From the NCBI GenBank assembly GCA_902785485.1, contig CACZZA010000004.1, positions 1 to 62,322 on the forward strand: DNA of 62,322 nucleotides, given 5' to 3'. Below, piece after piece: positions 6,040-62,322 of this stretch (its first letter is position 1; every line of letters begins with the position of its first letter). A program made the translations under genes and the position numbers. Source of the stretch: an uncultured Ruminococcus sp. GTDB taxonomy: Bacteria > Bacillota > Clostridia > Oscillospirales > CAG-272. Under the pieces are notes generated by a model. It was not told the origin of the DNA, did no database searches, and saw only the letters and a program-made list of their open reading frames with translations.

Positions 6040-6816
6040 ATGAAAATACTCGCTTTGGGCGATATTGTAGGAAAGAGCGGAGTCGACGCTCTGTGCGCGA
6101 CGCTGTGGGAAATTCGCAGGGAAAACGGGATAGACTTCGTTACAGCCAACTGCGAAAACGCGGCGGAGGGCAACGGGGTCGACAAGGCGTCCGCCGAACG
6201 CCTGCTCGCGTCGGGATGCGACGTATTGACCTCGGGCAACCACGTATGGAAACGAAACGATATATATTCGTTCCTCGACGACTCTCCGTATATCGTCCGT
6301 CCGATGAACTATCCTTCCGACGCGCCCGGCAAGGGATGGACGGTGGTCGACGCGCGCGGGATACGCGTCCTTGTTATGAACGTACAGGGGACTGTGTATA
6401 TGGAAAGCCTCGACGACCCGTTCCGCGCAGTCGAGAGGACGCTCGAACGCGAAAAGGGCGGATACGACGTCGCCGTTCTCGACGTCCACGCGGAGGCTAC
6501 GTCCGAAAAAGCGGCGCTGGCTCGGTGCTTCGACGGAAAAATAACATTCGTCTTCGGCACGCATACACACGTGCAGACTGCCGACGAGCGGATACTCCCA
6601 AACGGGAGCGCGTTTATCACCGATCTCGGTATGTGCGGTCCCGACGACTCGATACTCGGAGTAAAGTGCGACAACGTGATACGCAAGCTCAGAAGCAAGC
6701 TCCCCGTGAGATTTGAACCCGCCCCGGGCAAGGTCACTCTGCACGGAGCCGTGGTGACGCTCGGGCACAAAGGCGGTGTTTACCCGGTCGAAAAGATCGA
6801 AAGATTTGTAAAATAA
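6040..6816 (+). CDS. ymdB: YmdB-like metallophosphoesterase (2',3'-cyclic-nucleotide phosphodiesterase family)
   Basis: MKILALGDIVG...NCENAAEGNG...GNH...GTHTHVQT metallophosphoesterase motifs. Conserved position directly after rny. Confidence 0.9.
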   Translation: MKILALGDIVGKSGVDALCATLWEIRRENGIDFVTANCENAAEGNGVDKASAERLLASGCDVLTSGNHVWKRNDIYSFLDDSPYIVRPMNYPSDAPGKGWTVVDARGIRVLVMNVQGTVYMESLDDPFRAVERTLEREKGGYDVAVLDVHAEATSEKAALARCFDGKITFVFGTHTHVQTADERILPNGSAFITDLGMCGPDDSILGVKCDNVIRKLRSKLPVRFEPAPGKVTLHGAVVTLGHKGGVYPVEKIERFVK

Positions 6817-22246: not shown

Positions 22247-22582
22247 ATGGAAAACGCCGATTTCAATACGATACTGAACAGTTTGGCGCAAAACCCGGAG
22301 ACCCTGCGAAAGCTGGTGTCCGCGGTGAGCGATACGCCGTCCGCTCCCGCGTTTTCCACTCAGAGCGCGTCGCAGGAGCTTCGGACGGAGTCCGACAGTC
22401 TTGATAAACCCGCTTTGCCGGGGCAGAACCGCGATATTGAAAACCTGATAAGACTGCTTTCGGCGCTCAAACCCTATCTTGACGCCGATAAGAGGGGCAA
22501 GATAGACGGCGCGATACGGATACTGCGGATAGTCAGTCTCGCGTCGGGCGCGGGTCTTATGGGAAACGAAAGGAGGGGTTGA
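22247..22582 (+). CDS. hypothetical protein (111 aa)
   Basis: ORF 11 nt after the previous stop. No family recognised. Confidence 0.5.
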   Translation: MENADFNTILNSLAQNPETLRKLVSAVSDTPSAPAFSTQSASQELRTESDSLDKPALPGQNRDIENLIRLLSALKPYLDADKRGKIDGAIRILRIVSLASGAGLMGNERRG

Positions 22583-47281: not shown

Positions 47282-48160
47282 TTATTTCAACACTTCCCGC
47301 TCTTCGGTAAAGCCTCTGCCTCTGACCTCTTTTATCTGCGTTACGGTGATGAACGCGTGCGGATCGGCGCCTTTGATGAGTTCGGTCGCGTCGTAGAGCT
47401 TACGCGGAGGGATGACGCAGATGATGCCCTTTTGATTTTCTCCGAGCTTTCCGGTCTCTATCATCGCCATCGTGACTCCGGCTTCAAGCGTGTTGAGCAG
47501 AAGCTCTCGGAGTTTTTCGTATTCCTTGGAGATTATGAACAGCTGTATCTGACTCTTGCCGACGAGCATAACGCGGTCGAGCAGGAGCGTTTCGAGGACG
47601 ACGACGATTATCGCGTAGAGGGTCGATTCGGCGGGAGCGAATATCGCCTGTCCGCCGACGACGATTATATCGCAGAGCCACACAAATATGGACACGGGCA
47701 GATGGAACACCTTTGCGAGAACGAGGTTGATTATATCCGAGCCGCCCGTAGACGAGCCTACTCTCATCACGAGTCCGAGCGAGATGCCGAGCAGACACCC
47801 GGCGAAGATCGACGCGGTGAGCGGGTCGGAGGTCATATTTCCGATCCCCGGGATGCGCTGGAACAGTTCGAGAAACAGAGGATATATGACCGACGACACG
47901 ATTGTCGTCATAACGAACGCTTTGCCGAGGACGATCAGTCCGAGTATGAGCATAAGGATATTCAGTATAAGGACGAACATGGGCACGTCGATCTGCGGTA
48001 TCAGCTTGCTCATGACTATACCGATACCGGTCGTACCGCCCATTATTATATCGTGCGGTATGACGAACGCCGCAACGAGAAACGCGAGCAGGGCGTTTCC
48101 GGCGACGATCGAAGCCGTCGTCAGAGCGGCGTTTTTCGCTTTCTTTTTTGTGATGGACAA
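47282..48160 (-). CDS. YitT-family membrane protein (DUF2179 C-terminal domain)
   Basis: Polytopic N-terminal part with GGTTGIG motifs. The soluble C-terminal segment is typical of YitT/DUF2179. Confidence 0.8.
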   Translation of the reverse strand: MSITKKKAKNAALTTASIVAGNALLAFLVAAFVIPHDIIMGGTTGIGIVMSKLIPQIDVPMFVLILNILMLILGLIVLGKAFVMTTIVSSVIYPLFLELFQRIPGIGNMTSDPLTASIFAGCLLGISLGLVMRVGSSTGGSDIINLVLAKVFHLPVSIFVWLCDIIVVGGQAIFAPAESTLYAIIVVVLETLLLDRVMLVGKSQIQLFIISKEYEKLRELLLNTLEAGVTMAMIETGKLGENQKGIICVIPPRKLYDATELIKGADPHAFITVTQIKEVRGRGFTEEREVLK

Positions 48161-48355
48161 GATGACACACCCCCCGATTTATCACTGTCTTATAAAGTCT
48201 ATATTAAAGTATATCCGCGAAAAAGTAAAAAGTCAACACCGCCCGACAAAAAAGGCGCGTAAATTTCCGGACTGACTTTCACCCAAAATCCTACTGTGGA
48301 ATTTACTTTGGGAATTTACTTAAAAAACGCCTCTCCTGTTTTTTGAAAAAAACTC

Positions 48356-48384
48356 TTGACAAATCACGATAGCTGTGATACAAT
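48356..48384 (+). promoter_or_regulatory. promoter of the tRNA pair
   Basis: TTGACA, 17 nt spacer, TACAAT, 15 nt before tRNA position 1. Confidence 0.7.
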
Positions 48385-48399
48385 TCAAAAGTGCCTTAT

Positions 48400-48476
48400 G
48401 GCGGAATAGCTCAGCTGGCTAGAGCATTCGGTTCATACCCGACAGGTCGTTGGTTCAAATCCGACTTCCGCTACCA
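48400..48476 (+). tRNA. tRNA with CAU anticodon (elongator Met, or Ile2 if lysidine-modified)
   Basis: The cloverleaf folds by hand: acceptor GGCGGAA/TTCCGCT, D arm GCTC..GAGC, anticodon loop TTCATAC, T arm GTTGG-TTCAAAT-CCGAC, encoded CCA. Confidence 0.9.
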
Positions 48477-48478
48477 AA

Positions 48479-48553
48479 GGCCCGGTGGTCAAGCGGTTAA
48501 GACACCGCCCTTTCACGGCAGTAACAGGGGTTCGATTCCCCTCCGGGTCACCA
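48479..48553 (+). tRNA. tRNA-Glu (UUC)
   Basis: GGCCCGGTGGTCAAGCGGTTAAGACACCGCCCTTTCACGGC... is nearly identical to canonical Firmicute tRNA-Glu. Anticodon loop CTTTCAC. Encoded CCA. Confidence 0.92.
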
Positions 48554-48562
48554 ACAAAAAAG

Positions 48563-48594
48563 CGCCTTTTGTCTACCGACAAAAGGTGTTTTTT
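48563..48594 (+). terminator. intrinsic terminator after the tRNA pair
   Basis: CCTTTTGTC-TACC-GACAAAAGG stem followed by TGTTTTTT. Confidence 0.8.
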
Positions 48595-48606
48595 GTTGAA
48601 CGACGT

Positions 48607-48778
48607 GTTCCGCTTGCGCGGAACGTGATGTTTCCTTCGGAAGTGATGTACGCTGACGCGAGTGATGTGTGCCTGCGGCACGTGAGCGGAACGCATCACA
48701 TCACTTTGCGGCATAGCCGCAATACATCACTGTTTGCGGAGCAAACTGCATCACTTGCGCCGACGGCGCATACATCAC
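48607..48778. repeat. array of GTGATGT / ACATCAC heptamers alternating with short GC hairpins
   Basis: GTGATGT at 48625, 48643 and 48662, plus GTGAGC at 48682. The complementary (A/G)CATCAC is at 48698, 48724, 48748 and 48772. Each gap holds a different self-complementary hairpin, for example GTTCCGC-TTGC-GCGGAAC, GTGCC-TGC-GGCAC, TTGCGGC-ATA-GCCGCAA, GTTTGC-GGA-GCAAAC and TGCGCC-GAC-GGCGCA. Confidence 0.8.
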
Positions 48779-48947
48779 TTTACGATCCCGATCTCATTTG
48801 GTATTATAAACAAGAAGGGGACGGTACCATGTCTGTATAGAACTGAGTATATCGACGAAATTGCCTATAAATCGTTAAGTGATCAATGCACGACGATCCG
48901 TGTAATGCTTATTGCTTCTTGCCGGACGGCGAAAGGAGCCGACACAA

Positions 48948-49064
48948 ATGAAGAATGACGTCATCAACCATTACGACGCGTTGATCGATGAAGGAAATGA
49001 TCCGTTTCGCGATCCGAAACCTTTAAAAGAATACATGGATCGTTGGGACGGAAAACAGTTGTAA
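48948..49064 (+). pseudogene. 38-codon remnant of a class I SAM-dependent methyltransferase N-terminus
   Basis: MKNDVINHYDALIDEGNDPFRDPKPLKEYMDRWDGKQL-stop resembles the N-terminal leader of about 250-aa methyltransferases. The SAM-binding body is absent. GAAAGGAG RBS is retained. Confidence 0.55.
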
Positions 49065-49078
49065 ACCGGACCGCTTCG

Positions 49079-49107
49079 TTGAATTGTTCACAATTATATG
49101 GTACAAT
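49079..49107 (+). promoter_or_regulatory. promoter upstream of the zinc-ribbon membrane protein gene
   Basis: TTGAAT, 17 nt spacer, TACAAT. Confidence 0.55.
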
Positions 49108-61944: not shown

Positions 61945-61980
61945 CGAAAAAAGAAAAAACGCAAGAAGATAACTAACCAA

Positions 61981-62010
61981 GGGACTGAACAAAAACAGTC
62001 CCTTATTTTT
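61981..62010 (+). terminator. intrinsic terminator of the rnf operon
   Basis: GGGACTG-N8-CAGTCCC stem followed by TTATTTTT. Confidence 0.75.
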
Positions 62011-62035
62011 ATTAACAGGAAAATTTATCGCACTC

Positions 62036-62260
62036 GGTCTCGCGGCGATGACCGCTGACTAACTATAAAGCCTTGTTCAGTGGCAATTTGCGCTTCGTCC
62101 GTTCTCTCCCACTCGACGTACAGAAAGTACGCCTTCGGGGAGAGAACGAACGATCCTCATCCACGATACCTTCGCGCAGGGCGATCCATCGAAGGAAAAG
62201 TAACTTTCCGAAGGAAAGGAAACGCACAAACCCCACCTACGAAGCCGAGCCATTTGGCAG
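62036..62260. repeat. R1-family structured intergenic repeat, copy B
   Basis: Contains the same conserved blocks as copy A. Helix GTTCTCTCCC (62101-10) pairs with GGGAGAGAAC (62138-47). Inner hairpin CGTAC-AGAAA-GTACG (62117-31). Helix CCTTCG (62169-74) pairs with CGAAGG (62190-95). Confidence 0.8.
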
Positions 62261-62322
62261 TTATGTAAACGATTATTGCTGAATGGGCGATAGTGTTCCA
62301 AATGGCGATGCGAACGATAATT

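Follow-up and report, generated by a model that had tools for sequence, protein, structure and literature searches.

A decayed gene cassette behind a tRNA-Glu gene of an uncultured Ruminococcus carries a two-armed hairpin ladder related to the Gut-1 motif

REP, BIME and REPIN elements of Enterobacteria and Pseudomonas are high-copy intergenic palindromes that sit at the 3′ ends of transcription units and form alternating mosaics. BOX, Correia and MITE-like repeats are modular, with variable internal units, stable folds and many copies, and integrons hold small one- or two-gene cassettes in series, each bounded by an attC site that is conserved in fold and thought to act as folded single-stranded DNA (ssDNA). 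Here we compare these systems, together with the Gut-1 motif and a family of four-helix-bundle proteins, with a ladder of short repeated words and hairpins that lies behind a transfer RNA (tRNA) gene in an uncultured Ruminococcus sp. The stretch analysed, called the window below, is positions 1 to 62,322 of contig CACZZA010000004.1 (assembly GCA_902785485.1), which is contig C4 of a genome (G000) of 2.34 Mb in 210 contigs. We found that positions 48556-49064 of the window are a decayed small gene cassette behind the CCA end of tRNA-Glu, and that the ladder is its non-coding head.

Gut-1 (RF01706) has been in Rfam since 2010 as a 77-nucleotide (nt) small RNA (sRNA) derived from metagenomes, with no known function, and its motif consists of three hairpins joined by GUGAAAU. 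It was put forward as a candidate non-coding RNA (ncRNA) from human gut metagenomes only, in the sole Gut-1 literature that we found (Weinberg et al. 2010, PMC2864571). The ladder is like Gut-1 in that three to four differing small hairpins stand on a constant 7-nt GUGA linker, and both come from gut organisms. A permissive Rfam scan matched Gut-1 to 48598-48673 over model positions 1-77 with 28.8 bits (E 0.0025); the window copy falls short of the 50-bit gathering score, its linker is GTGATGT instead of GTGAAAT, and it has at least three differing hairpins with a constant GUGAnnU linker. The whole genome gave 46 Gut-1 matches, eight of them over the cut-off (53.7-70 bits) and found in the same context, and because these bona fide hits come as convergent plus/minus pairs, both arms of the element match the model on opposite strands. 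Judged by its sequence, the ladder is a diverged copy of the Gut-1 motif, and each half is an orphan Gut-1 motif. It departs from Gut-1 as described in further ways: the motif here makes up one half of a DNA repeat with two arms, which lies behind tRNA terminators; a protein gene is tied to it; and the strand that its structural biases favour is the reverse of the one given by Rfam.

The ladder element spans 48599-48785 (187 nt), downstream of tRNA-Glu. A base-for-base check found the words and hairpins where the initial annotation had placed them, and the element starts 8 nt further 5′, at AACGACGT (48599); the terminator at 48556-48598 is also part of the unit. The parts of the locus are as follows.

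48356-48384, plus strand: the tRNA pair's own promoter, TTGACA-17-TACAAT (promoter scan)
48400-48553, plus strand: tRNA-Met(CAT) and tRNA-Glu(TTC), the docking site (ARAGORN; Rfam tRNA 62.9 and 59.1 bits)
48556-48598, plus strand: terminator, A-tract, hairpin GCGCCTTTTGTC-tacc-GACAAAAGGTG and T-tract, a terminator on both strands (terminator scan)
48599-48624, plus strand: leader AACGACGT and anchor hairpin GTTCCGC-ttgc-GCGGAAC (sequence inspection)
48625-48681, plus strand: left array, three units of GTGATGT and a short hairpin, a Gut-1-type motif on plus (Rfam Gut-1 28.8 bits)
48682-48704, plus strand: centre GTGA-GCGGAAC-GCATC-ACATCAC, the junction at which halves assort (complement of leader and anchor arm)
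48698-48778, plus strand: right array, four (A/G)CATCAC words and three longer T/A-framed hairpins (Gut-1-type motif on minus)
48779-48807, plus strand: cassette promoter TTTACG-17-TATTAT with TG, touching the last heptamer (promoter scan)
48829-48958, plus strand: four-helix-bundle (PF05635) pseudogene (tblastn and DNA alignment to L093 and L074)
48948-49064, plus strand: methyltransferase stub of 38 codons (71% identity over 35 amino acids (aa) to the C7 N-terminus)

The direct words GTGATGT start at 48625, 48643 and 48662, 18-19 nt apart, and a GTGAGC variant stands at 48682 within GTGAGCGGAAC. GCATCAC at 48693 overlaps ACATCAC at 48698, and the further right words (ACATCAC at 48724, GCATCAC at 48748, ACATCAC at 48772) follow at 24-26 nt, so that the window holds a direct and then inverted, two-armed array of words and hairpins. 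The anchor hairpin stands 5′ of the first heptamer, and every left gap holds a hairpin (ttcc-ttc-ggaa, cgc-tgac-gcg and gtgcc-tgc-ggcac; in full ttccttcggaa, acgctgacgcga and gtgcctgcggcac). The right hairpins, all framed by T/A, are ttgcggc-ata-gccgcaa, gtttgc-gga-gcaaac and tgcgcc-gac-ggcgca. The 5′ arm of the anchor and the leader recur as their complement at the centre, as long-range partners.

Between the ladder and the methyltransferase stub lies a four-helix-bundle pseudogene that the initial annotation had overlooked, and the order in the window is terminator, ladder, promoter, deleted four-helix-bundle gene and methyltransferase stub. The pseudogene begins ATG TCT GTA TAG (48829), with TAG as the fourth codon; intact genes begin ATG TCT GAA TCA AAA. 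About 76 codons (approximately 230 bp) are deleted, and the last 34 or so codons (..EYIDEIAYKSLSDQCTTIRVMLIASCRTAK) continue in another frame at 48833-48934, with the stop at 48956-48958. A tblastn search with the L074 protein matched aa 80-113 at 65% identity (E 1.5e-9). The promoter at 48779-48807 is present, and the PF05635 gene downstream of it exists only as a deleted pseudogene. The stub at 48948-49064 encodes the beginning of a class I S-adenosylmethionine (SAM) methyltransferase, a cargo gene that overlaps the four-helix-bundle stop by 11 nt, like that of C7, and its homology to C7 ends at 49051. Fifteen nt past the stub, a promoter TTGAAT-17-TACAAT (49079-49107) serves a zinc-ribbon membrane protein gene and forms the right edge of the remaining cassette.

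An intact cassette in the same genome, on the minus strand of contig C7, runs from tRNA-Arg through a terminator, an ATGATAT ladder, a four-helix-bundle gene (120 aa, 35808-35446) and an overlapping class I SAM methyltransferase gene (198 aa, 35456-34860) to the terminator and left half once again. After the gene for the Avd-like four-helix-bundle protein, intact copies carry a cargo gene that varies. Because the C7 cassette has the same order, the truncated methyltransferase of the window is the cargo remnant of a decayed cassette. The window genome has no second gene for a protein of the GATGT type. Its GTGATGT ladders therefore lack a cognate gene, and the window copy is probably inert.

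The promoter on the right flank of the window ladder is conserved in two related copies (L074 and L093), where it drives an intact gene for a 119-aa four-helix-bundle protein. The protein matches PF05635 (23S_rRNA_IVP, 2.3e-27) and TIGR02436 ('four helix bundle protein', 4.3e-30), and its nearest solved structure is PDB 2RLD, for which five chains are deposited. Some members of PF05635 have solved structures, and to our knowledge the family has no known role outside diversity-generating retroelements (DGRs). Homology links PF05635 to Avd, an accessory protein of DGRs (PMC10053308). The intervening sequences (IVS) of 23S ribosomal RNA (rRNA) belong to the same comparison (PMC10053308; PDB 2RLD): the protein family is the same, and a gene is joined to an inverted-repeat element at a stable-RNA gene. 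The difference is that the ladder cassette lies behind tRNA or transfer-messenger RNA (tmRNA) genes and not inside 23S rRNA.

The link between ladder and gene holds well beyond the window. In 12 of the 79 family copies that have enough downstream sequence, a same-strand four-helix-bundle gene lies 150-600 nt downstream. Among 31 relatives, a ladder of some subfamily stands directly 5′ of 23 of the 29 PF05635 genes (19 canonical, 4 variant); the gene is present in all 20 genomes with at least two Gut-1 hits and absent from eight of the nine with none, and the copy in the ninth has an in-frame stop. This ninth genome is G004, whose PF05635 match (C89:3687-3917) carries an in-frame TGA, which suggests that gene and ladders decay together. 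Across 151 genomes of the order, 57 have both, 10 Gut-1 only, 14 PF05635 only and 70 neither (odds ratio 28.5, p 8e-18, Spearman 0.80, from counts that ignore shared ancestry), and 43 of the 45 genomes with at least four Gut-1 hits carry the gene.

The word carried by a ladder also follows the protein beside it. We placed 13 word classes on a maximum-likelihood tree of 40 proteins and compared the result with 200 shuffles. This analysis showed that the classes need 12 changes, the minimum possible, against a shuffle mean of 20.4, and that none of the 200 shuffles was as low. All 19 xTGATGT cassettes fall in one clade that spans many genomes, and several protein clades occur within each of the single genomes G008, G010, G012 and G018. 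The initial annotation had offered an iteron-like protein-binding array in two orientations as an alternative, and since each heptamer word goes with one clade of the neighbouring protein, such an array is now the best-supported mechanism. Neither the link between PF05635 and Gut-1 nor a cassette of hairpin array and four-helix-bundle gene is described in the literature we searched. Five PF05635 genes (L201, L202, L203, L185 and L206, in G003, G007, G016 and G002) have bare tandem words upstream and no hairpin ladder (TTTTCAC four times with inverted GTGAATA/GTGAAGA, or AATGCAG repeats), which may represent a form of the site that lacks hairpins.

What the initial annotation missed is that the ladder is one copy of a large Gut-1-related family, with about 25-30 loci in the window genome. 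All follow one plan, in which a terminator-proximal array of GTGAnnn words with short hairpins is followed by an inverted array of nnnTCAC words with longer hairpins. Paralogues with the same word and layout lie on C5, C71 and C101, and five more partial copies at contig ends. Sister subfamilies use GTGAAGT, GTTATGA, GTGAAAT, ATGAAAT, ATGATAT, GTTATAT/GTGATAT or GTGAATT; in each, the right arm carries the complementary word, so that the heptamers change in concert and the architecture is kept. Among public genomes, more than 114 stretches carry the exact signature GTTCCGC-N3-6-GCGGAACGTGATGT, nearly all of them in metagenome-assembled genomes (MAGs) of rumen or gut Clostridia (Ruminococcaceae, Oscillospiraceae, Acutalibacteraceae and others, from cattle, goat, buffalo, deer, yak and horse), and four to five matches are chance hits in unrelated phyla. 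A phage origin was rejected, since 50,697 phage records gave no meaningful match (a single 49-nt match, E 4e-4).

The two halves of the element assort at the centre. The two ladders of the C7 cassette have 147 nt in common at 98% (terminator, left half and centre) and unrelated right halves, and this direct repeat stops at the centre. Compared with L093, the window has 98% identity in the centre and right half and 87% in the flank, and all three left hairpins differ; compared with the C5 paralogue behind tRNA-Met, the right array is 99% identical, and the terminator, the anchor loop, one left hairpin and the flank differ. Among 43 complete copies, 16 of the 42 pairs whose left halves are at least 90% identical have right halves below 75%. 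The left hairpins are drawn from a small reused vocabulary (TTGCTTCGCAA, GCCCTTCGGGC, GCACTTCGTGC, TTGGCTTCGCCAA and others) at varied positions. This is modular exchange of halves. In two copies, L171 (third left hairpin) and L097 (first right hairpin), the hairpin loop holds a foreign module of about 45 nt (..GGGGTCCCC....GGGGATTGGG..), which looks like nested insertion of another small repeat.

Each copy directly abuts an upstream hairpin with no spacer, usually an A-tract/T-tract terminator right after a tRNA; in the window, tRNA-Glu ends at 48553 and the unit starts after it with its own terminator. In the window genome, 9 of 28 tRNA units by a strict scan, and up to 13 of 28, end with an array, and a tmRNA precedes the C71 copy and likewise one copy in the relative G030. 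This is an approximately 25-fold enrichment over other operon ends, with the operon number estimated. Copies behind different tRNAs agree in the terminator (of the type CTTTTGTC-nnnn-GACAAAAG), in the ladder and in the right flank over about 45 nt, and since their homology starts past the CCA, the terminator belongs to the repeated unit.

Several flanks show further modules. On C5 (about 400-480, minus), C26 (about 6490-6580) and C17 (about 22250-22330), an identical module of about 70 nt, consisting of a TTGATAATTTCACATTTTTATGTTATAAT promoter and a leader GAAAAGAACTCAACAAATCGGGATTT, follows ladders of different words; no four-helix-bundle gene follows it, and since the genes that it precedes differ, it is a portable promoter/leader. 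Behind tRNA-Cys on C32 (23062-23340; L227:113-390) and tRNA-Thr on C130 (2535-2810; L228:86-365), the first terminator is separated by a stretch of about 110 nt, in which a core (CCGGKTCGTACCCCCGACYGAGC..AGCGARGGGCGA) is conserved, from 19 nt that directly repeat the 3′ end of the respective tRNA; another terminator and the ladder come next. This is the footprint, like that of an attachment (att) site, of a small insertion between tRNA and ladder, and an Rfam scan of the insert gave no match. A metagenomic contig (L004:1900-2640; ENA ERZ27280357, contig k141_323182) has the same tRNA pair, ladder and downstream genes as window 48150-48800 and a different upstream region, with an abhydrolase gene, a 211-aa gene and another promoter in place of yitT; either two tRNA-Met/Glu copies have truly rearranged here, or a repeat has caused a misjoin in the assembly.

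The window holds a decayed PF05635 cassette headed by the ladder, and we consider it probable that the cognate protein would bind such ladders as a cis site for cassette insertion or exchange; on sequence grounds this is the most likely role. The heptamers would be the recognition words of the cassette's own four-helix-bundle protein, one word type per protein clade, and the perfectly paired mini-hairpins would display them on single-stranded DNA, folded or extruded. Cassettes would insert or exchange at the ladder to which the protein is bound. Crossover would occur at the centre (GCGGAAC and the leader complement), which would give left and right halves their separate histories, and arrays would lengthen and be rearranged one unit at a time by way of the recurring heptamer. 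A further-reaching version, in which the ladders are recombination sites of an undescribed cassette system and a pentameric Avd-like protein reads the 7-nt word between mini-hairpins on folded ssDNA without integrase, transposase or reverse transcriptase and so directs promoter-bearing cassettes to insert or exchange behind tRNA and tmRNA genes, is a speculative possibility that we rate well below an even chance.

The first alternative is that the ladder is a structured ncRNA, as its Rfam entry (sRNA) implies, acting as a protein sponge or as a 3′-end protection or processing element and transcribed by tRNA read-through or from the opposite strand. The similarity to Gut-1 speaks for it, and so do hairpins that vary in sequence with their pairing kept. 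We counted the pairs in the stems as follows.

Own genome, GTGA strand: Watson-Crick 570, G.T 0, A.C 4
Relatives, GTGA strand: Watson-Crick 1067, G.T 0, A.C 9
Family copies, left arm, sense: Watson-Crick 478, G.T 0, A.C 1, other 0
Family copies, right arm, sense: Watson-Crick 583, G.T 9, A.C 1, other 7

The stems are therefore about 99% Watson-Crick (570/574, 1067/1076 and 1061/1079), and such a near absence of G.U is unusual for selected RNA helices. The wobbles are nearly all G.T on the nnnTCAC strand (23 to 1, some of the 23 cases being copies by descent), a strand bias that would suit an RNA. About two-thirds of the loops read T-N-C or T-N-N-C on the GTGA strand, which is C-GNA-G or C-GNNA-G on the opposite strand. 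Loops of the C-GNA-G type form exceptionally stable DNA mini-hairpins, e.g. d(GCGAAGC), which speaks against the RNA. Because the loop and wobble biases are mirror-imaged in the two arms, no single transcript carries the favoured strand of both. The flanking terminator is bidirectional, which fits an RNA as well, but it is a strong one, and the element lies between it and the cassette promoter, which should keep the element out of both neighbouring transcripts. Taken together, the pairing and loop biases and the position between terminator and promoter favour a structure formed by the DNA, whether extruded or single-stranded, rather than an RNA gene, and we regard the ncRNA explanation as unlikely.

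The folding of both strands bears on both explanations. Relative to shuffled sequence, z was -5.4 on the plus strand and -4.4 on the minus strand, strongly negative values that speak for the RNA. Under DNA parameters, 48599-48785 reaches its energy minimum as the outside-in ladder with all hairpins (-54.3 kcal/mol), in which 48625 pairs with 48772, 48643 with 48748 and 48662 with 48724; the ladder as specified reaches -43.5 against -35.8 for the hairpins alone, and -71.2 against -48.6 with RNA parameters. The outside-in pairing proposed by the initial annotation is thus the predicted ssDNA fold. It is not what conserves the heptamers: arrays without a complementary arm (C51 with eight units, C62, C42 and C17) still have constant heptamers, so left-right pairing is not what keeps the words constant. 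Where copies have three words on the left and four on the right (24 copies), the C variant falls mostly on the second left word (8/24) and the G variant mostly on the third right word (12/24), partners in the outside-in register, which gives this register weak backing; the words within one element are all alike, so the registers are inseparable by covariation. As to chance, GTGATGT occurs 12 times on both strands of the window against 3.8 +/- 1.9 in shuffles, with six of the 12 inside 154 nt. The background frequency named at the outset as a test was indeed ordinary genome-wide (294 copies, the 64th percentile of heptamers, no over-representation), yet the copies are clustered in 11 arrays.

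The second alternative is a passive palindromic repeat of the REP/BIME kind with no functional tie to the four-helix-bundle gene, spread by slippage or template switching between terminators and promoters and serving at most as a back-up terminator, an insulator or a supercoil sink. Ladders do resemble REP, BIME and REPIN elements in being high-copy, intergenic, located at 3′ ends and built as alternating modular mosaics, and their position is always terminator-proximal. Arrays lacking the complementary half and tandem two-unit duplications (at C51, C62 and C72) point the same way; from these duplications, arrays grow by slippage on the repeated word. Template-switch repair can keep palindromes perfect even where selection does not act. 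The gene is absent beside most copies, and the window genome is rich in other hairpin repeat families. One of these, far more abundant, ends most contigs of the assembly (C6:38220-38517, C51:11586-11883, C118:6135-6432, C78:986-1281, C66, C141, C171 and window 61978-62322) and embeds one-directional arrays of GTGATGT and a hairpin, as well as arrays with ATGAAGA/ACGAAGA/GTGAAGA linkers; since arrays sit inside this second family, the unit of word and hairpin is shared between repeat families.

A passive repeat would not explain the strong phyletic link to PF05635, the ladder in front of 23 of 29 genes, the perfect congruence of word and protein, or the enrichment at tRNA and tmRNA ends. The REP arrangement is also reversed here, with a constant linker and hairpins that vary from unit to unit, and the ladders differ from REP in being specific to tRNA/tmRNA flanks and linked to PF05635. 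The REP/RAYT model itself was rejected, as the RAYT/Y1 transposase (PF01797) had no match in G000, G002, G015, G018, G021 or G030 (the relatives among them hold 25-64 Gut-1 hits) and does not correlate with copy number. BOX, Correia and MITE-like repeats offer a similar likeness in their modular build, and the half element C17:6151-6254 is bounded by anchor and centre as a 15-nt perfect terminal inverted repeat; the ladders differ in that copies are not near-identical, units shuffle, a dedicated non-transposase protein is present, and no target-site duplication was evident at any junction read. We therefore give the passive repeat little credence.

The cassette reading is to be preferred also over a double-stranded operator, by which the protein would regulate its own abutting promoter through the heptamers, with no movement of DNA and with hairpins that are incidental. 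The last heptamer does touch the -35 box, the promoter is always on the right-array side, and word and protein clade are congruent. But an operator leaves unexplained the near-perfect palindromic spacers with strand-biased G-N-A loops, the dozens of ladders that persist without the gene, and the duplication of terminator and left half at cassette ends, which makes it very unlikely.

A cassette site also invites comparison with integrons, since attC sites likewise bound small cassettes and are conserved in fold rather than sequence. The ladder differs in docking behind tRNA genes and not at attI, in cassettes that carry their own promoter and terminator, and in its branched, multi-hairpin form, and the words GTGATGT/ACATCAC lie outside the attC core RYYYAAC/GTTRRRY. 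No integrase gene was found beside the cassettes read, and no genome-wide intI search was made. That the ladder is an att-type site or remnant of a tyrosine-integrase element, or an attC-like site served by an integrase elsewhere, is hardly credible. In its favour, tRNA/tmRNA 3′ flanks are classical integration sites, C32 and C130 show their 19-nt repeats, and cassettes whose sites are structured but variable in sequence resemble attC. Against it, the window has no second copy of the tRNA-Glu 3′ end (its last 19 nt occur once at up to three mismatches), the cassette begins after the CCA and not within the tRNA, the cassettes read neither contain nor adjoin an integrase gene, and the words are unlike GTTRRRY. 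With no direct repeat of the tRNA-Glu 3′ end, the integrase att site was rejected, and the early hunch of a recombination hotspot, drawn from the tRNA flank and the truncated methyltransferase, holds for the decayed inserted cassette and fails for an integrase-type att signature. A DGR or other retroelement was set aside as well, because reverse transcriptase (PF00078, RVT_1) had no match in G000 and is absent from many ladder-rich genomes (G013, G014, G015, G018, G021 and G030). The reading as neither a CRISPR array nor coding DNA stands: the repeats are 7 nt and the spacers palindromes of 11-19 nt, against repeats of at least 23 nt with unique non-palindromic spacers in CRISPR, and the open reading frames (ORFs) of 149 aa (plus) and 93 aa (minus) traverse tRNA genes and are spurious.

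Several observations weigh against a PF05635 cassette whose protein acts on the ladder. Some 85% of family copies stand without a four-helix-bundle gene beside them, and the window genome has about eight word types against three intact genes. The congruence of word and protein clades is also expected from plain neighbour linkage; shared ancestry may enter the co-occurrence counts and does enter part of the wobble cases. No recombinase turned up (no Y1 transposase, no reverse transcriptase, no integrase beside the cassettes read), and we know of no catalytic activity in the PF05635 family. Protein look-ups, a metagenome scan and yitT homologues gave no orthologous site in empty and occupied states, so mobility is inferred from paralogy and mosaicism only; exact-protein look-ups of the neighbours returned identical loci only, the metagenome scan with a 257-aa neighbour returned nothing, and yitT homologues within the family (up to 63% identity) were never beside tRNAs.

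In MAGs of gut and rumen Clostridia, the cassette accounts for many of the spurious ORFs, breaks in the assembly and 'truncated' genes that follow tRNAs. The Gut-1 motif makes up one half of a DNA element with two arms that docks behind stable-RNA genes, and because Gut-1 and PF05635 are tied physically, phyletically and by lineage, two orphans become one testable pair of protein and site. The cassettes may represent a route of moving small genes without a recognised recombinase. The recombination-site reading, if true, would explain both the orphan Gut-1 and the PF05635 '23S rRNA intervening-sequence' proteins.

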